A DNA stretch of 64,000 bases from positions 2,309-66,308 of the forward strand of contig JAQTQO010000003.1 of assembly GCA_028712155.1 (NCBI GenBank), written 5' to 3'. The notes under the pieces are model-generated. The model had not been told where the DNA came from, made no database searches, and saw only the letters and a program-made list of their open reading frames with translations. Numbering within the stretch: position 1 is the first letter of the stretch; the number at the start of each line of letters is the position of its first letter. A program made the position numbers and the translations under genes. This document shows, one piece after another, positions 886 through 33,347 of the stretch. This DNA is from Patescibacteria group bacterium. GTDB taxonomy: Bacteria; Patescibacteriota; Patescibacteriia; Buchananbacterales; GWA2-38-13.

Positions 886-1161
886 ATGGCAGAACAAAAA
901 ATCGCAAAAATTGTGGTCGATCGCAACCTGTGCATCGGTGCGGCCACGTGCGTGGTGACCGCCGGCACGGTGTTCGAACTTGACGGCGAAAATAAAGCCG
1001 TCATTTTGCAGCAGGGTGGTACGAAAAATTCCGGTCCTGCCAAACGAGCCGTTCTTAAAGACGCGGCGGTGGCGGATGCAACGATCCTGGCGGCGGCGCA
1101 ATCGTGCCCCACGCGCGCGATTTTCCTCTATGATGCAGCGGAAAAACAAATCTTTCCCTAA
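886..1161 (+). CDS. Monocluster ferredoxin (3Fe-4S type)
   Basis: VDRNLCIGAATC (CxxAxxC) and AAQSCPTRAI. Confidence 0.85.
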   Translation: MAEQKIAKIVVDRNLCIGAATCVVTAGTVFELDGENKAVILQQGGTKNSGPAKRAVLKDAAVADATILAAAQSCPTRAIFLYDAAEKQIFP

Positions 1162-2404
1162 GTCGAAGACCACCGAGGTGAAATATTTGATCATCGGCGG
1201 CGGGGTGGCCGGAACCACAGCCGCCGAAACCATCCGGGAGCGCGACGCTACCGGCAGTATTACGATCGTTTCCGACGAACCTTACCGGCTGTACTCCCGC
1301 ATCATGCTGTCCAAACCGAATTTTTTCCTTGGAAAAATTCCGTTCGAGCAGATCTGGTTAAAATCTGAGTCGTGGTACACCGACAAGAGAATTACGTTCA
1401 TGCCTGGCACGCGGGCCCAGACGCTTGACGCAGAAAATCAGCAGGTGACGCTCAGTAACGGGATGGTGTTCCGGTATGAAAAATTACTGCTCGCGGTGGG
1501 CGTGCTGCCCAATGCATGGCAAGTTCCGGGGTCAGACCGCCGGGGGGTCAATCAGCTGCGCACTCTGGACGATGCGAAAGTCATTATCCAGGGGATTAAG
1601 CGGGTGAAACACGCGGTTTGTATCGGCAGCGGGTTTACGACCTTTGAGATGTGCGACATGCTGCGGATGGCCGGCGTGGACGTCACGGTGGTGATGCGCG
1701 AGCCGCACTACTGGGATCCGCTATTGGATTCTGTATCAGGCGGCTTGATTGAACAGGCGATGGTGAAAGGCGGCGTGAAAATCGTCCGGCAGGCGCTGGT
1801 TAAAACGGTGGACGGCGGCAGGAGCGTCACTGGCGTCACTTTGGAAAGCGGCGAAAAGATTCCTTGCAGCATGGTCATCGCCGGCGTGGGAACGTACGTG
1901 CCGTGCGATTGGGTGAAAACAGGCGGGGTCGCGGTGAACCGCGGCATTTTAGCCAATGAATATCTCGAGACGAATTTCTCCAATATTTGGACTGCGGGAG
2001 ACTGTGCCGAGTTCAACGACCTTATTCTTGAAGAGCAGTTGGTGCTGGGGAATTGGGCCAATAGCCGGCAGCAGGGAGCCTTGGCCGGCGGCAATATGGT
2101 CGGCGGGCGCACGGCGTTCAAGATGGTATCATTTTATACCGCCAATGGATTCGATATAACGATCGCGTTTGTCGGTGACGTCCGGGCCAAAGACCGGCAG
2201 GTGATCGTGCGGGGCAGTTCCGCCCAGGGATTCTACATCCGTCTGATCGTTGACGATCATGATGAGATTGCCGGCGCGACGTTCATCAATAAGACGCCGG
2301 AGATGGCGCCGGTGTCCAAGCTGATCGAGACCAACGTGAAGGTATCGCCGATCCGGCCGCAGCTGGAAGATCCGGCGTTCGATTTACACAAGCTCGTATC
2401 CTGA
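1130..2404 (+). CDS. FAD/NAD(P)-dependent oxidoreductase (ferredoxin/rubredoxin reductase, NirB N-terminal-like)
   Basis: IIGGGVAG FAD motif, PYRLYSRIMLS, IGSGF NAD motif, IWTAGDCAE; start 1130 or GTG 1178. Confidence 0.88.
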   Translation: MMQRKNKSFPKSKTTEVKYLIIGGGVAGTTAAETIRERDATGSITIVSDEPYRLYSRIMLSKPNFFLGKIPFEQIWLKSESWYTDKRITFMPGTRAQTLDAENQQVTLSNGMVFRYEKLLLAVGVLPNAWQVPGSDRRGVNQLRTLDDAKVIIQGIKRVKHAVCIGSGFTTFEMCDMLRMAGVDVTVVMREPHYWDPLLDSVSGGLIEQAMVKGGVKIVRQALVKTVDGGRSVTGVTLESGEKIPCSMVIAGVGTYVPCDWVKTGGVAVNRGILANEYLETNFSNIWTAGDCAEFNDLILEEQLVLGNWANSRQQGALAGGNMVGGRTAFKMVSFYTANGFDITIAFVGDVRAKDRQVIVRGSSAQGFYIRLIVDDHDEIAGATFINKTPEMAPVSKLIETNVKVSPIRPQLEDPAFDLHKLVS

Positions 2405-2409
2405 GATCT

Positions 2410-2982
2410 ATGCCGATCAAAAAACTCCGCGCGCGACCGAAGAAAGCCAAGACGGCGGTTTTGAAGAAAACTGCCGCGGTCCCGGTACCGGCCGAGGAAC
2501 AAAAGATCCGGATCGGCTGGTTTACCTTTTCGTGCAGCGAGGATAATACGGTGGTGATGACCGAGATCATGAACGACCACTGGCAGGAATGGAAAAAAAT
2601 GTTTGATTTCCGCCACGTCCGGATGCTGAAATCCCACAATATTCTCGACGCCCTTGATATCGTTTTCATCGAAGGGGCGATCGCCTCGGAAGAGCAGGCC
2701 CAAAAGCTTAAGGAAATCCGGCAGCGGTCCAAGCTGCTGGTGGCGGTTGGCGCGTGCGCCTGCGTCGGTCTGCCGGCCGGGCAGCGCAACACGTTTACGG
2801 AAATTCAGCGCGCCAAAATCGAACATCTGGTGGCGAAATTTGCCGCCCTGCCGAAAGTGCTGAAAGTGGCGGAGGTCGTTTCCGTGGACGCGGAAGTTCC
2901 GGGCTGCCCGATGGACCCGGCGAATTTTTTGCGCGTGGTCAACCAGGCCGTCGCTCGGGTGCGGGCGGAGAGGCGGTCATAA
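2410..2982 (+). CDS. [NiFe] hydrogenase small subunit, proximal-cluster domain only (HydD/HoxY-like)
   Basis: FSCSED, FIEGAI, VAVGACAC.G, VPGCP; directly upstream of large subunit. Confidence 0.85.
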   Translation: MPIKKLRARPKKAKTAVLKKTAAVPVPAEEQKIRIGWFTFSCSEDNTVVMTEIMNDHWQEWKKMFDFRHVRMLKSHNILDALDIVFIEGAIASEEQAQKLKEIRQRSKLLVAVGACACVGLPAGQRNTFTEIQRAKIEHLVAKFAALPKVLKVAEVVSVDAEVPGCPMDPANFLRVVNQAVARVRAERRS

Positions 2983-2995
2983 CCCATCGTGTGCT

Positions 2996-4291
2996 ATGCA
3001 TACCGTCGATCTTGATTTCACCATCGACCGGGTGACGAAAGTGGAAGGCTCGGCGTCGCTGGACGTGAAGGTGCGCGGCGGCAAAGTGCAGGAAGTCCGC
3101 TTCAAGATTACCGAGTACAAGCGGTTCTTCACCCAGGCGATGCTGGGCAAGCCGATCGCGGCGTTGCCGCAGCTTTTGTCGCGCATTTGCGGCACGTGTT
3201 CCAACGCTCACCTCCTCTGCTCGATCGAAGCGTGCGAACATGCGCTCGGGGTGGTGCCGTCGCCGCAGACGATGCTGCTGCGCATGCTGACGATGTACGG
3301 TCTCATGATCCGGGACCACGCGCTCCATTTGTATTTGTTTTCCATGCCGGATATCTTCGGCAAGGATGCATTTCTGGATCTTGATGAATCCAACCCGGAA
3401 CAGCATCAGATGCTGCACGACGGCTTCGAGGTCAAGGCGGCGGGCAATTACCTCGCGACGTTGGTCGCCGGCCGTTCCGTACACGCGCTGTATCCGGCCA
3501 TCGGCGGTCACCTGCGCACTCCCGATGCCGAAGGTATCGCGGAGGCGGTTAAGAAATTAACGGCGGTGCGGCCGGCGGTCCTGCGCCTGATCGACATTTT
3601 TGCGCAGGCACCGTTCCATTTTGACCGGCAGACCAATTTCATGGCGCTGGTTCCCGAGCGGTACGGTTTTCTTAAGGGCGTGATCGTCACCAGCCGGGGC
3701 GATCGCATCCAGGAGGAGCAGTTCCGGCGGCACCTTGAGCGCGTTGTGCTCCCGTACTCCCAGGCGTCGGCGTACAAGCACCAGGCATCGTCGTACATGG
3801 TCGGGTCACTTGCGCGGATTAACCTCGCGAGCGATCACCTGCATCCCAAAACCAAAGAGTCGGCCGCACACGTATTGAAACACTTCCCATCGACGGATGT
3901 CTTTCACAACAATTTGGCCCAGGCGATTGAGATACTCCATGCGGTTGACGATGCTATCGAGATGCTTACGACGCACCAGTTCAAACCGGAACCGGTACCG
4001 AAACTGGTCTACCGCGAGGCCGTCGGGGTCGGCGTTATCGAAGCGCCCCGCGGTACGCTCTACCATGAGGTTGGAATCGGCGCCGACGGCGTGGTCACCC
4101 ACGGAGAAATCGTGGTCCCGACGGGGCAAAACCAGATCAATATCGAAGAGGACGTTCACCGGCTGGTCCAGGATCTTCTGCCGCATGTCACGCGCGAAAT
4201 ACTGACGCATGAAATCGAAAAGCTCATCCGGGCATACGATCCGTGCATGAGCTGCGCTTCCCACTTCTTGAAGGTGAACTGGGACGCGTGA
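2996..4291 (+). CDS. [NiFe] hydrogenase large subunit, group 3b-related
   Basis: TKVEG, L1 SRICGTCSNAH, EAPRGTLYH, L2 RAYDPCMSCASH plus short cleavable tail FLKVNWDA. Confidence 0.95.
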   Translation: MHTVDLDFTIDRVTKVEGSASLDVKVRGGKVQEVRFKITEYKRFFTQAMLGKPIAALPQLLSRICGTCSNAHLLCSIEACEHALGVVPSPQTMLLRMLTMYGLMIRDHALHLYLFSMPDIFGKDAFLDLDESNPEQHQMLHDGFEVKAAGNYLATLVAGRSVHALYPAIGGHLRTPDAEGIAEAVKKLTAVRPAVLRLIDIFAQAPFHFDRQTNFMALVPERYGFLKGVIVTSRGDRIQEEQFRRHLERVVLPYSQASAYKHQASSYMVGSLARINLASDHLHPKTKESAAHVLKHFPSTDVFHNNLAQAIEILHAVDDAIEMLTTHQFKPEPVPKLVYREAVGVGVIEAPRGTLYHEVGIGADGVVTHGEIVVPTGQNQINIEEDVHRLVQDLLPHVTREILTHEIEKLIRAYDPCMSCASHFLKVNWDA

Positions 4292-29011: not shown

Positions 29012-29875
29012 ATGGTAGAGGCCAATGACTTACGACCCATCGTCTGCAAGTTCGACGGTACGGCGACCGCGAACGCCGACCGGTTGCGCCGGGTGCGCGA
29101 CATCGTGAGGTCAGACCCGCTGCGGCGGTTCGTCGTGGTCTCGGCGTTCGGGAAATACACTCACAGCGATCACGACTGCACCAGCTTGCTGATGCTGTGC
29201 GATGCGCACGTCCGGCTCGGCTACCGTTTCGACCCGTTTTTCAAGCCCATTGCCGAACGGTTTCGTACCATCGTTCGTGACTTGCAGCTGGAAGTCGATA
29301 TCCAGCGACTTTTGGATGAAGTCGAGGCCGGCATCATGACGCAGGCCGAAGGTAATAAGTGTTACGCCGCCAGTCGCGGCGAGTACCTCATGGCCGTTGT
29401 TGTGGCCAACTTTTTGGGGTGGCCGTTCATTGATGCCACGGAGGTCATTCGCTTCAGTGCGGACGGTGCGCTCGACAGCGCGGCCACGAACGCGGCAATC
29501 GCGGAACGACTGTCGCAGGTCGAACACGCGGTCCTGCCGGGATTCTACGGCAGCCTGCCGGATGGGCGGCTCAAGACGTTTCCCCGCGGCGGGTCGAACA
29601 TCACCGGTGCGTTGGTGGCCGGCTCCGTGCATGCTGCCCGCTACGAGTGCTGGACCGACGCGGCAGGACTTGTTTGCCCGGCCCCCGGCGCAGAACCGGT
29701 TGGGCGGATGACCTACGCCGCATTCAAAGCTCTGCCGGAGGGCGGGGTGAAGATTTTCCCTGCCGAAGCGCTGGCGGTCGTGCAGGAGACCGGCCTTCTC
29801 CTCAACCTTCGCGACACCGATCGGCCGGAACATCCGGGCACGCTGATCGTGCCCGACCATCGCGCGTTGCAATGA
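29012..29875 (+). CDS. Aspartokinase-like amino-acid-kinase domain, degenerate, no ACT domains
   Basis: VCKFDGT, VVVSAFG, SRGEYL, VLPGFYG, TFPRGGSNITG, WTD, GTLI. Confidence 0.8.
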   Translation: MVEANDLRPIVCKFDGTATANADRLRRVRDIVRSDPLRRFVVVSAFGKYTHSDHDCTSLLMLCDAHVRLGYRFDPFFKPIAERFRTIVRDLQLEVDIQRLLDEVEAGIMTQAEGNKCYAASRGEYLMAVVVANFLGWPFIDATEVIRFSADGALDSAATNAAIAERLSQVEHAVLPGFYGSLPDGRLKTFPRGGSNITGALVAGSVHAARYECWTDAAGLVCPAPGAEPVGRMTYAAFKALPEGGVKIFPAEALAVVQETGLLLNLRDTDRPEHPGTLIVPDHRALQ

Positions 29876-29885
29876 CCTTTCGATA

Positions 29886-29918
29886 CGGCATGCGCATAAA
29901 CGCATGCCGATTTTTTTT
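29886..29918 (+). terminator. Intrinsic terminator
   Basis: CGGCATGCG...CGCATGCCG + T8. Confidence 0.8.
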
Positions 29919-29944: not shown

Positions 29945-29973
29945 TTGACACTCCACGATTGGTACGGTAGACT
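29945..29973 (+). promoter_or_regulatory. sigma70 promoter
   Basis: TTGACA-N17-TAGACT. Confidence 0.7.
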
Positions 29974-30062
29974 GCCGGTGGCTCGTTCGGTTCGTTGAAA
30001 AAGTGTTACTGTTTTGGACATTTCAAGCCACCAGGAATTCAAGTTACAGGAGGTACGTTGTG

Positions 30063-30611
30063 ATGAATAAGAAAAACAAACGGCGCTGGCTGCCCAAGAC
30101 CGACGATGAGCGGCGGCTGCTGTGCCGGGCGGCGCAGTTCGTGGTGCACGGACGGGAGTGCGGAGTGAAGTCGCTCACGGCAGAGCTCGACATCGCGCCG
30201 GCACTGGCCAGAAATCTCCAGTGGTGGATGGAGGATCACGAGGTGATCGAAGGCTGTCGCAACGGTCCCGGCCGACGGAAAGTGCTGGTACCGGACCTCA
30301 AGGCGCTGGGCAGGCGGTTTCCGCCGTTCGCCAAACTCATCATCGATGACGGCAACCATACGTCGCCATCCCCGTCTCCTTTACCGGCCGCTCGCGCGCC
30401 GGCACCACTGCCCGATGAGGCGGACGTCGGATCGCCCGACAAGGGGTTTGCCGCACCCGGAATTTCGGCGAAGGATCTCGAACGCCTGTCCGGGAAATTA
30501 CGGCAGCTGCTGGCTGCCCAACGCCTGGTGTTGGGCGACACGCCCGGCACAAAAATCATCCAGGAGACGATCGTTTTGTTCCAGAAGCTCGTCGAAGAGC
30601 GTAGCCACTGA
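30063..30611 (+). CDS. Protein with N-terminal FtsK-gamma-like winged helix
   Basis: SD AGGAGGT; LCRAAQFVV..RE.GV..L...LDI....A..L...MEDHEVI......GRRKVLV follows the FtsK-gamma pattern. Confidence 0.65.
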   Translation: MNKKNKRRWLPKTDDERRLLCRAAQFVVHGRECGVKSLTAELDIAPALARNLQWWMEDHEVIEGCRNGPGRRKVLVPDLKALGRRFPPFAKLIIDDGNHTSPSPSPLPAARAPAPLPDEADVGSPDKGFAAPGISAKDLERLSGKLRQLLAAQRLVLGDTPGTKIIQETIVLFQKLVEERSH

Positions 30612-30639
30612 ACCTTGGCAAATACTTCACCGCGTTACT

Positions 30640-30673
30640 CGCGCCGCGACCCATAGTCGTTGGCGCGTTTTTT
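30640..30673 (+). terminator. Intrinsic terminator
   Basis: CGCGCCGCGAC..GTCGTTGGCGCG + T6. Confidence 0.7.
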
Positions 30674-30782
30674 AATGCGCATTGCGCGGCCATGATTGAC
30701 GTCACTTCCGTTCCATGGTAATACGGGAACGCGTTTTTTGAACCTTGTCATTTTGCTCGGTAAACCCGGTAGCGGAGGAGCC

Positions 30783-31997
30783 ATGACCTTCGAACAACCG
30801 TCGAACGCATTGCTCATCGCAACGCGTTGGGATGAGCTTTCGCCTCCTCCGGGGCCAAAACGGAGGACGGAACTTCTTGCAGCCCAGCAGAGGGCGCTGG
30901 GAACCGAAGTTCCCGAGAATGTTTACTGTAAAATGCACGGAGAAGAGATTTCCGTGCGCCGGTGCTTAGCGTCCCAGTTCGACCCCAAGTGCCTGGGCTG
31001 CAGCGCCGTTTCCCATCTCTGCCATCGTTGCTGGTTGCAACCGATTGCGATGGCCGAACTGGAGCTGTGCGCGGAATGCCTGGAGTTCTTCCTGGCGGAA
31101 GAGAAATCCCGCGGCCAGCCGCAGCTGGATGACGAACGGATCGTTTGGTGTCTCGTTGAGAAACGAAAAGTGAAAGTGTTCGGTTGCCGTCGGCGGCAAC
31201 TGCGCAGCGCCAAGTCGTGCTTCGGCTGCGGCCAACCCGCACGCGTATGCGGGTGCAAGGAATTTCCCGTGTGCTATCCCCAGGACGGCTACTGCCGCCG
31301 CTGTGCGGTGAAAACCTACGGCGGCGATGAGTACGCGCCGCTCATTGCACGGGCGCACGCGCCCGGACGGTACCGGGAACTCTGCGGGCTGCATCGGGCA
31401 AGAGTTTCGAGCCGGGCGAACCCTTCTTTGACAAATCCTTTGCCGGTTCCCGCGGCGGATGCGGCAGCCGACGGTCGTTTGACGGGAATCGATGCGTTGG
31501 CATGGGAAGCTGCCATGCGCATGGTTATGGATTTCCAGGAACACGGCAAGGCGAACACGGGACAAATTTGGCTCGCCAAACAAGGGAGAATTCCCATCGC
31601 AGAGGCCCATGCGCTGCAGCTGCGCCTCGAAAAGCTCGGGGTGCTTGGCCCCAGTAGCGGCACCACGCAACCGCGCCGGTTACTGGTGAGGTCGCTTGAA
31701 GAGCTTGAGCGGGTAGTCCGCCCGAAGCTGAAACCGTCGGGTGTTCCCGGCACACCGGCAGTTGCGCCAAGCGATGCCGCATTAGCGCTGCGGCAGATCG
31801 AAGAGCTCCTGGGCGCACGACCGAACGGCACGTTGGCGCCCGGGCAGGTCGGCACTCAGCTGCAAGTCATCTGCCAATACCTCGAGCCGCTCGGCTTTCC
31901 AACGATCGTTGCCGTGCTGCAACGGGCCAGCGACGGCCTGAACGCGTTCGGGCAGATCATCGGCCAGATGGATAGCTGGCTCAAGCGTACCAAGTGA
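30783..31997 (+). CDS. Protein with two 8-Cys repeats and an FtsK-gamma-like winged helix
   Basis: SD GGAGGA; tandem C-x11-C-x8/10-CxxC-x6-Cx(1-2)C-x12-CxxC; LEKLGVLGPSSGTTQPRRLLVRSLEELE. Confidence 0.7.
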   Translation: MTFEQPSNALLIATRWDELSPPPGPKRRTELLAAQQRALGTEVPENVYCKMHGEEISVRRCLASQFDPKCLGCSAVSHLCHRCWLQPIAMAELELCAECLEFFLAEEKSRGQPQLDDERIVWCLVEKRKVKVFGCRRRQLRSAKSCFGCGQPARVCGCKEFPVCYPQDGYCRRCAVKTYGGDEYAPLIARAHAPGRYRELCGLHRARVSSRANPSLTNPLPVPAADAAADGRLTGIDALAWEAAMRMVMDFQEHGKANTGQIWLAKQGRIPIAEAHALQLRLEKLGVLGPSSGTTQPRRLLVRSLEELERVVRPKLKPSGVPGTPAVAPSDAALALRQIEELLGARPNGTLAPGQVGTQLQVICQYLEPLGFPTIVAVLQRASDGLNAFGQIIGQMDSWLKRTK

Positions 31998-32016
31998 CGC
32001 CGCATTTTGAACATTC

Positions 32017-32084
32017 TCTGGCACAGATACCCCTCTGTGCCAGATTTTTTTATAAAAAAAGAGCGGGGACGGTGATCTCCGCTC
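32017..32084. terminator. Back-to-back terminators for the convergent genes
   Basis: TCTGGCACAGA..TCTGTGCCAGA+T7 (+) and GAGCGGAGA..TCCCCGCTC+T7 (-). Confidence 0.8.
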
Positions 32085-32118
32085 AACGTTGAAGGTTCCG
32101 CATGCGTGCGCCGCACCG

Positions 32119-32919
32119 TCACGATTTGAGTTTTTCCTCAATGAATGCTACGAGCGTGCGCAGCTCGGGGCCAAGCGTCTCCCTCCTTCCGCGGGGAAGG
32201 TCTTTCCAGGCGCCATCGAGCGCGTCGTAGAGTTCCTGGACGAGGTTGGTGATGCGCTCGAGCGAAACGGTCTTGGGGCGCTTTGGCTTGTTGGGGCGCT
32301 TGGGCTTCGCCCGGTTCGAGGTTTGCAGGAAGCCTTCCAGGTCGCTGACCGACCACCGGCGGGTGGCGGCCAGTTGGGCCGCCCGTTCCTGCACGACCGA
32401 GTCACCGGTCATGGCGTTAAGCATCTTCCCGTGCCCGAGTCCGATCTCGCCCGAATCGAGCAGGTCCTGGACGCGGGGTGCGAGTTCCAGCAGCGCGAGA
32501 CGTTCGCGCACGTAGATCGGGGACTTGCCGAGACGTTCGGCAACGCGTTCGACGCTGCCTGCGCAGTGGTCATCGCGGAGCCGCTGGATGCCCTCGGCCT
32601 CCTCCATGATGGTGAGGTTTTCGCGCTCGACGTTGTCCGTCAGTGCGAGCGACGCCGCTTCGGCGTCATCAGCAGCCTTGACCGTGGCCGGAATCTTGTC
32701 CCGGCCAAGGTGGACGAACGCTTGCAGGCGACGGGCGCCGGCGATGAGTTCGAAGCGGTTGCCCTTCCTGCGTACGATGACGGGGTTGATCAGCCCCTCG
32801 ATGCGGATGCTCTCCGCGAGCGATCCGATGCCGTCCGCGGCGTTCCGTCGGCGCGGTTGGTACGGGCTGGGGTCGATGTTGGCGATCGGCAGTTCCACGG
32901 AAACCGTGGATGGCGTCAT
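32119..32919 (-). CDS. ParB/Spo0J-family protein, orphan
   Basis: PYQPRR, LAESIRIEGLINPVIVR, IAGARRLQA, DNVERENL, HTH VAERLGKSPIYV; SD GGAGGTGG. Confidence 0.9.
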   Translation of the reverse strand: MTPSTVSVELPIANIDPSPYQPRRRNAADGIGSLAESIRIEGLINPVIVRRKGNRFELIAGARRLQAFVHLGRDKIPATVKAADDAEAASLALTDNVERENLTIMEEAEGIQRLRDDHCAGSVERVAERLGKSPIYVRERLALLELAPRVQDLLDSGEIGLGHGKMLNAMTGDSVVQERAAQLAATRRWSVSDLEGFLQTSNRAKPKRPNKPKRPKTVSLERITNLVQELYDALDGAWKDLPRGRRETLGPELRTLVAFIEEKLKS

Positions 32920-32987
32920 GATCCACCTCCCTTCACGAGCCGTAGGTTGGATTCGCAAATTCCGAAAAGGTCAACGATCTGCCCACC

Positions 32988-33016
32988 AGCCTACTGGTTT
33001 TATGTAAAAAACGCAA
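32988..33016 (-). promoter_or_regulatory. sigma70 promoter for ParB-like gene
   Basis: TTGCGT-N17-TAGGCT on minus strand. Confidence 0.5.
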
Positions 33017-33059
33017 ACGTTTGGTGGCCGATAAATCTTTTTTCCGATATACTAGGACT

Positions 33060-33347
33060 ATGCCGAAGTTATCGTCAATATTTTCCGGCGTCCGTTACGG
33101 GCGGTATGACAAGCTCGTCCATTTTTTTGCCAGCGCCGCTATTGCCGTAATTTTTTTGCCCATCCTGCCGTTACCGCAGGCGGCAGCCCTGAGTTTGAGT
33201 TTCGGTATTGCCAAAGAGCTGTACGATTGGCTGTGGCGTCACGGCAGTTTTGACTGGTACGATATTTGCGCCGACGCTTGCGGGGTGGCGGCGGCAACCG
33301 CCGCGTACGGGGTGATGCTCCCGATCATGCTCCGGTCTGCGGGGTAG
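33060..33347 (+). CDS. Small membrane protein (VanZ-like)
   Basis: DKLVHF, GIAKELYD, FDWYDICADACG. Confidence 0.7.
   Translation: MPKLSSIFSGVRYGRYDKLVHFFASAAIAVIFLPILPLPQAAALSLSFGIAKELYDWLWRHGSFDWYDICADACGVAAATAAYGVMLPIMLRSAG

Follow-up and report, generated by a model that had tools for sequence, protein, structure and literature searches.

We describe a locus within a 64,000-nucleotide stretch of DNA (the window) from a Patescibacteria group bacterium, NCBI GenBank assembly GCA_028712155.1, contig JAQTQO010000003.1, positions 2,309 to 66,308 of the forward strand. At this locus two genes on the + strand, here called A and B, are followed by a gene of the ParB family on the - strand. B and the ParB gene likely form a two-gene module that organises DNA or silences it over distance. 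By analogy with known partner proteins of the ParB family, we propose more specifically that B, together with A, would read DNA sites through winged helices of the FtsK gamma type and cooperate with a ParA-independent ParB to organise or silence chromosomal DNA, a reading to which we assign a probability of roughly 0.45. The three genes and their parts are as follows, with positions counted from the first letter of the window.

30063..30611, + strand: gene A of 182 aa, with a gamma-type winged helix, a linker rich in Pro and Ala and a helical tail
30105..30302, + strand: winged helix of the FtsK-gamma type in A, residues about 15-80
30783..31997, + strand: gene B of 404 aa, with a double eight-cysteine module, a gamma-type winged helix, a second winged helix that is degenerate, and a helical tail
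30900..31337, + strand: double eight-cysteine module of B, residues 40-185
31485..31700, + strand: winged helix of the FtsK-gamma type in B, residues 235-306
31767..31994, + strand: C-terminal helices of B, residues 329-404; remnant of a second gamma copy plus tail
32119..32919, - strand: ParA-less ParB-family gene, 266 aa, convergent with B

Pairing of the B family with ParB

The B family was delimited by a full HMMER search from an alignment of B, which gave 106 representative proteins, and distant loci were drawn from a scan of a genome collection, a metagenome scan and a phylum-wide search. A B-family gene adjoins a ParB gene or is fused with one in 9 of 10 evaluable loci, or in 7 of 8 when the three congeners are counted as one; a locus cut at a contig end (L052), two apparent copies (L050 and L051, of L046 and L047) and a weak match, G047, stand outside this count. 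Orthologues of B occur in two of three congeners at 40-42% identity, each with two winged-helix copies, and both of these congeners keep the order aspartokinase, B, convergent ParB, VanZ, DsbA, glycosyltransferase. A convergent ParB gene directly follows the B-family gene in L045, L047, L048 (with two ParBs), L049 and L053 (genome G108), and in L046, from Candidatus Uhrbacteria, the cysteine module is itself fused to ParB_N and HTH_ParB and followed by a convergent second ParB. Two further module-ParB fusions, P0049 and P0062, bring the fusions to three proteins. An earlier note on this DNA, made by a model from the letters alone, had treated A, B and ParB as one set; B and ParB do recur together elsewhere, in both congeners that have B, in five distant loci and, fused, in a sixth, and the part concerning A falls away, as A is present in 1 of 61 related genomes, namely its own (0 of the 60 others).

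The surroundings of the pair are of two kinds. On its other side, the B-family gene of most distant loci has a divergently oriented sigma-70 gene, in many cases as a fusion with an HrpA-like helicase and DnaA_C, with RNase III next after it. The window genome is without this arrangement, with aspartokinase and DsbA genes around the locus instead, and the B-ParB pair is kept nonetheless.

The ParB of the window belongs firmly to its family, with 75.3 bits for ParB_N (cut-off 26.3) and 64.7 bits for HTH_ParB (cut-off 22.6) in Pfam, and 120.4 bits for TIGR00180 (cut-off 58.45) in NCBIfam, where its best match is Noc (TIGR04285) at 154.2 bits, under the curated cut-off of 315. Because the canonical parA-parB operon of the genome lies elsewhere, on contig C16, the window gene is a second, ParA-less copy. 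There is no parA gene at the locus, and the N-terminal ParA-binding peptide GLGRGL..LIP, present in 6 of 6 canonical ParBs, is absent from 8 of 8 B-linked ones; the earlier description of a ParB without ParA facing A and B is thus correct. The B-linked ParBs share a C-terminal region of their own and keep the QPR, GERR (8 of 9) and ENLQR-like boxes. In the ParB tree, the ParA-linked proteins form a clade (100/99) with no B-linked member inside, six B-linked ParBs form a clade of their own (91/92), and the window ParB and its two orthologues fall beside the latter in no resolved order. On these features, the B-linked ParBs form a distinct subtype.

A search of the genome with the canonical parS consensus gave no exact match and a single match with one mismatch, on contig C35, with none in the window. 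The palindrome AACGCGTT occurs four times within 1.8 kb around B and ParB, at 30728, 30821, 31941 and 32542; these are its only copies on the 81.6-kb contig, and there are 34 genome-wide. One copy lies inside a 26-base near-perfect palindrome (30812-30837) within the start of B. We rejected AACGCGTT as a cluster of sites: the enrichment is marginal (19 of 400 random windows equal it), and it is absent from the orthologous loci.

Some further observations concern the distant loci. Divergent from the B-family gene and beside RNase III, giant fusions of 1224-1299 aa join an HrpA-like DEAH helicase to sigma-70 regions 2-4, with the DnaA_C helix-turn-helix in four of the five (L045:2996-6670, L047:2856-6755, L048:2884-6768, L049:2848-6744 and L052:2707-6417); in G108 and Candidatus Uhrbacteria the parts of this fusion are encoded as separate genes. 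The second ParB paralogue of L048 (L048:8802-9626), which lies beside the first, groups (97/93) with the module-fused ParB of Candidatus Uhrbacteria (L046:3721-5103), and HNH_repeat proteins come next in both of these loci.

The cysteine module and the gamma-type winged helices

The largest and best-conserved part of B is a module of 145 residues (residues 40-185), made of two repeats of about 70 residues with 16 cysteines in all, each repeat following the pattern C-x11-C-x3-Q-x4-C-x2-C-x6-C-x2-C-x12-C-x2-C. Across 65 sequences, 12 of the cysteines and 2 glutamines are invariant. The make-up of gamma domain, linker and tail that had been attributed to both genes fits A and is incomplete for B, whose main part is this module. 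It has no model in Pfam, NCBIfam or PHROG; no structural match to it was listed in searches of the models, none of which used the module alone, and a protein-atlas look-up gave an uninformative best score of 0.79. The module is an undescribed domain family and new for annotation.

Because of the cysteine spacing and the predicted beta-hairpin knuckles, the module is predicted to bind about four zinc ions. The AlphaFold2 model of B, from a 65-row alignment, has a mean pLDDT of 83.3, with the cysteine module above 90 and the C-terminal part folded as three helices; a model made earlier with 3 sequences had been of low quality (pLDDT 44.8).

The module is found in 93 of the 106 representative proteins. 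Apart from B, 44 of the 92 module proteins carry PF09397, the Pfam family of the FtsK gamma domain, at E<=0.01, 27 of them exceeding its cut-off of 30.6 bits, with up to four tandem gamma copies; conversely, among the 105 hits passed through Pfam, 13 have gamma domains only and lack the module. Other partners among the 92 are Phage_integrase or its SAM-like domain (4), GerE (3), HTH_3 of the Xre type (3), SprT-like (3), ParB_N with HTH_ParB (2) and DnaA_C (1). Joined to these different DNA-acting domains, the module is a movable part. In P0015, P0028, P0034, P0067, P0059, P0065 and P0080, it precedes tyrosine recombinases and SprT-like metalloproteases, after an extra 30-120 residues or so.

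The gamma identity of A and B does not appear in direct family searches. Neither protein has a family in Pfam or NCBIfam at E<=1, PHROGs also gave nothing, and PF09397 run across the whole genome at E<=10 recovered the true FtsK (contig C8) alone; word-indexed homologue searches with A and B returned the queries alone, and a longer search for A was empty. The direct Pfam match to FtsK_gamma that had been suggested as a check is therefore missing, and homology is seen at the level of profiles. The two congeneric orthologues of B match PF09397 at E 1e-6 (28.7 bits) and 3e-4 (20.8 bits), against the cut-off of 30.6, and hhalign of the B-family winged helices with 30 FtsK gammas of related genomes gave a probability of 93-96% (P 3e-7 to 1e-8). 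A local gamma profile, made from the gamma-type domains of B-family proteins and FtsK gammas with A and B excluded, was run over all 12,515 frames of at least 60 aa in the genome; it ranks FtsK first (1.6e-27), A second (9.2e-6) and B third (9.6e-5), with the next frame at 0.039. A reaches 24.8 bits over profile positions 3-65, which covers the whole domain, and hhalign of A against the local gamma alignment gives 85.8% (P 5e-6). A language-model look-up of A in a protein atlas pointed to FtsK_gamma clusters at 0.86, a lead only.

The gamma-like segments that had been noticed by eye in both + strand genes are real by these measures, and their positions (about 30105-30290 and 31490-31710) and recognition-helix strings, APALARN and PIAEAHA, agree with the alignment. 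At the columns of the GY.RAAR motif, A reads IAPALARN and B reads IPIAEAHA, and the 30 FtsKs of related genomes read G-Y-x-R-A-A-R. A and B have no Walker A motif, no 19-residue stretch above 1.27 on the Kyte-Doolittle scale and no match to PF01580, so that the earlier claim of no ATPase and no transmembrane part stands. Judged from the profiles, A and B each have a winged helix of the gamma type, without a motor and with an altered recognition helix.

Foldseek, which the earlier note had suggested as a check, gave nothing against the Protein Data Bank (PDB) at E<=1e-3 for either model of B, with generic winged-helix regulators only, and sequence searches of the PDB gave chance-level rows only. 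Compared with its orthologues, B is missing the second winged helix owing to two deletions (8 and 7 columns), and no profile matches there. A C-terminal tail motif found in 41 of the 106 family proteins is undetectable in A, in B and in the orthologues of B.

A gamma domain freed of its motor could serve recombination: the gammas of A and B would bind and switch on a XerD-like tyrosine recombinase and so control site-specific recombination. According to the accessible parts of PMC3130261 and PMC5052618, the gamma domain of FtsK activates XerD by itself; a motor-less Xer activator, XafT of the TLC phage, is described in the accessible part of PMC6744903; and the recombinase-domain fusions (4 of 92 relatives) point the same way. 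However, neither the locus nor any of the 9 related loci scanned has a recombinase gene, it is ParB and not a recombinase that is conserved as the neighbour, and the arginine that is critical according to the accessible part of PMC5052618 corresponds, by an approximate mapping, to Ala in A and to Lys in B. We regard this explanation as very unlikely.

Gene A and the setting of the locus

Gene A is missing from the syntenic loci of the congeners and occupies the position of the ACT domains in their aspartokinase. The aspartokinase gene of the window (29012-29875) is truncated, encoding 287 aa with the kinase domain alone; the orthologues in the congeners have 478-486 aa with ACT regulatory domains. 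In the region of gene A there is no ACT remnant in any frame and no DNA similarity elsewhere.

A is not an orphan: it resembles P0077, a 543-aa multi-repeat gamma protein known from metagenomes only, with a BLASTP match at E 6e-9. Three repeats of P0077 match residues 4-101 of A, there is also alignment in the Pro-rich linker and the helical tail, and a post-wing motif, L..L..RFP, is common to A and the P0077 repeats and present in weaker form in B. In a tree of the winged helices, A, B, its orthologue and the P0077 repeats form one clade of 10 rows with an SH-like value of 95, a weak grouping from a short alignment. Neither viral contigs nor, at E<=1e-6, the 401 genomes of the phylum gave relatives of P0077; the search of the genomes was insensitive, as it missed even gene A in the genome that carries it. 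A appears to be a lineage-specific single-gamma protein outside the conserved B-ParB set.

The host genome amounts to 1.44 Mb on 72 contigs, and related genomes, whose records where named are Candidatus Uhrbacteria and Magasanikbacteria, have 0.7-1.4 Mb; an origin in the candidate phyla radiation, as presumed in the earlier note, agrees with this. The window around the locus is ordinary chromosome, with uvrA, uvrB, uvrC, metG, rlmN, elp3 and type IV pilus genes. Public contigs of one study cover the locus, and one of them spans it unbroken at 100%; among public runs, no RNA data set is listed as containing it. Far from the locus, at 980-4291, a flavoprotein oxidoreductase gene lies beside genes for sulfhydrogenase-like NiFe hydrogenase delta and alpha subunits, with scores far under the equivalog cut-offs.

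This setting bears on the idea that the locus is left over from a mobile element such as a plasmid or phage, that is, a captured partition or interference cassette. Housekeeping genes lie on both flanks and the congeners are syntenic; the codon-position GC is native, that of A being 0.67/0.46/0.75, similar to the adjoining housekeeping genes; no relative was found in the viral contig collection, and the locus shows no sign of an integrase, repeats or tRNA borders. Such an origin is highly improbable, even though orphan ParBs are often carried by mobile elements (PMC12704722, accessible part), gamma-only proteins are common in phages, and A is a species-specific insertion replacing the ACT part of aspartokinase.

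The three genes are signalled separately, A and B on the + strand and ParB on the - strand. A has the ribosome-binding site AGGAGG, 7 nt upstream of its ATG, and B has GGAGGA upstream of its ATG. The remaining signals are as follows.

29886-29909: terminator-like hairpin that closes the aspartokinase gene and precedes the promoter of A
29945..29973, + strand: sigma-70-like promoter of A, TTGACA-17-TAGACT, 10/12 matches
32017..32044, + strand: terminator-like hairpin with a T run, downstream of B
33049..33078, - strand: sigma-70-like promoter of the ParB gene, TTGACG-18-TAGTAT, 9/12 matches

Alternatively, A and B could be stand-alone transcription factors with a gamma-type winged helix, and ParB an unrelated gene in function, kept by synteny. 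In favour of this, every one of the three genes is equipped with a terminator-like hairpin and with a promoter-like or ribosome-binding site. The joining of the module to the classical regulator domains GerE (three cases) and HTH_3 (three cases) is in keeping with this, as are the divergent orientation of most relatives to a sigma-70 gene and the locus L054 (G267), where the B-family gene has no neighbouring ParB. Synteny alone fits poorly, however, with a B-ParB pair that persists in two different gene surroundings, with fusion of module and ParB in three proteins, and with linked ParBs of a distinct subtype; we consider the explanation by separate regulators unlikely. Concerning L054 (L054:3079-4299), the search match there, G267:C12:4066-4305, is flagged with one in-frame TGA, and G267 has a second ParB-like gene on another contig.

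Proposed role and known systems

Because the B family stands beside a ParA-less ParB in nearly every locus, the pair is likely a new DNA-organising or gene-silencing module. The roles put forward in the earlier note (nucleoid organisers, regulators or interference factors) are likewise hypothetical. In the mechanism that we propose, the gamma helices of B, and of A, would recognise words in DNA that differ from the ones read by FtsK, since the recognition helix differs. The cysteine module, with its predicted four or so zinc ions, would be a shared partner-binding or DNA-binding part. The ParB is taken to act as a CTP-dependent clamp because the boxes of its family are kept, and B would load, position or lock this clamp, as KorA and TrbA do with KorB. 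A would supply a second gamma domain in a species whose B has lost the second copy kept by the congeners.

Several observations weigh against the proposed role. A and B stay under Pfam's own threshold for PF09397 (30.6 bits), and the match in structure, in which the modelled three-helix winged-helix fold of B superposes on solved gamma domains, depends on the sequence evidence because the AlphaFold2 alignment held gamma-bearing relatives. Box II of the window ParB reads GARR, against GERR or GERG in the 8 other B-linked ParBs. No repeated palindrome that could be a parS-like site recurs in the 8 other loci, and the B-family gene of L054 stands without ParB. Gene context is available for few loci, most of which belong to a single radiation of small-genome bacteria, so that common descent may account for some of the adjacency, and the B family is seldom met (in 3 of the 401 genomes sampled from the phylum). 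The joining of the module to GerE, Xre, recombinase and SprT domains would be expected of a general-purpose module no less than of a ParB-specific one. Finally, binding of DNA, metal or ParB by B and of CTP by ParB are predictions from sequence. A complex prediction for B and ParB scored 0.01 against a mark of 0.32, which speaks neither for nor against binding.

A broader version of the proposed role can also be formulated, namely an undescribed chromosome-handling system of CPR (candidate phyla radiation) bacteria in which a motor-less polypeptide with 1-4 tandem gammas would read polar DNA words and a four-zinc module would place a ParA-independent ParB CTP clamp, the whole being mostly wired to the neighbouring sigma-70, helicase and RNase III genes. 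We hold this version to be quite improbable.

Several FtsK gamma domains sit together on one KOPS word, and the tandem gammas of the relatives of B, up to four, recall this grouping. With the FtsK/SpoIIIE gamma domain (PF09397; PDB 2VE8, 5DCF), A and B share the winged-helix fold, profile homology and the pattern L..A...V, LE..GV.GP, R.VLV. They differ in having no ATPase motor and no membrane part, a recognition helix other than GY.RAAR and Pfam scores below the cut-off; moreover, the gamma domain here is joined to a cysteine module (B) or stands alone.

In the AspA-ParB-ParA system of the Sulfolobus plasmid pNOB8, a winged-helix site binder, a ParB-like adaptor and a ParA motor act together. 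The likeness lies in a winged-helix site binder paired with a ParB-like protein; the pNOB8 system is plasmid-borne and has the ParA motor.

The KorB protein of plasmid RK2 with its clamp-locking partners KorA and TrbA (PMC11790492 and PMC13584720, accessible parts) offers a ParB-family protein that acts with a small site-specific DNA-binding partner and not with ParA alone, a mechanism that we propose here by analogy. B is unrelated in sequence to KorA and TrbA, and the present locus is chromosomal rather than plasmid-borne.

Orphan ParBs are widespread (PMC12704722, accessible part), and like Noc and other orphan ParB-CTPases the window ParB is a second ParB outside the parAB operon, without the ParA-binding motif. 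It differs in its own C-terminal region and in its dedicated neighbour with gamma domain and cysteine module. The main text of that survey, as far as accessible, has 0 occurrences of 'FtsK' and 'Patescibacteria', and no description of a gamma/cysteine-module partner of ParB was found in the literature.

FtsK's gamma domain is a textbook reader of chromosome polarity, and the accessible part of PMC8190038 states the role of many motor-less copies, the FtsK_gamma genes of phages, to be unknown. Phage gammas that stand alone, and the fusion of gamma with a small terminase in Bacillus phages Sam46 and Sam112 (PMC8190038, accessible part), resemble A and B as motor-less gammas that are presumed to be a DNA-recognition part. 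They differ in a near-canonical gamma (85-254 bits), no cysteine module and no link to ParB; phrog_13700, 6576, 36563, 6152 and 22882 are made of gamma-only proteins. The earlier statement that no such system has been described holds for the pairing with ParB and fails for motor-less gammas as such, which are known from the 13 gamma-only proteins, several PHROGs and the accessible part of PMC8190038.

Taken together, motor-less gammas and orphan ParBs are each known, and what is new is that an orphan ParB has a dedicated, probably DNA-binding partner with an undescribed domain at its core. ParB-family CTP switches beyond classical partition form an open field of current study, and partners are known for few of them. 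The recurrent, partly fused pairing of gamma and ParB, with a 16-cysteine module for which no model exists, makes a concrete two-gene system that could show how minimal-genome organisms organise or silence their DNA.

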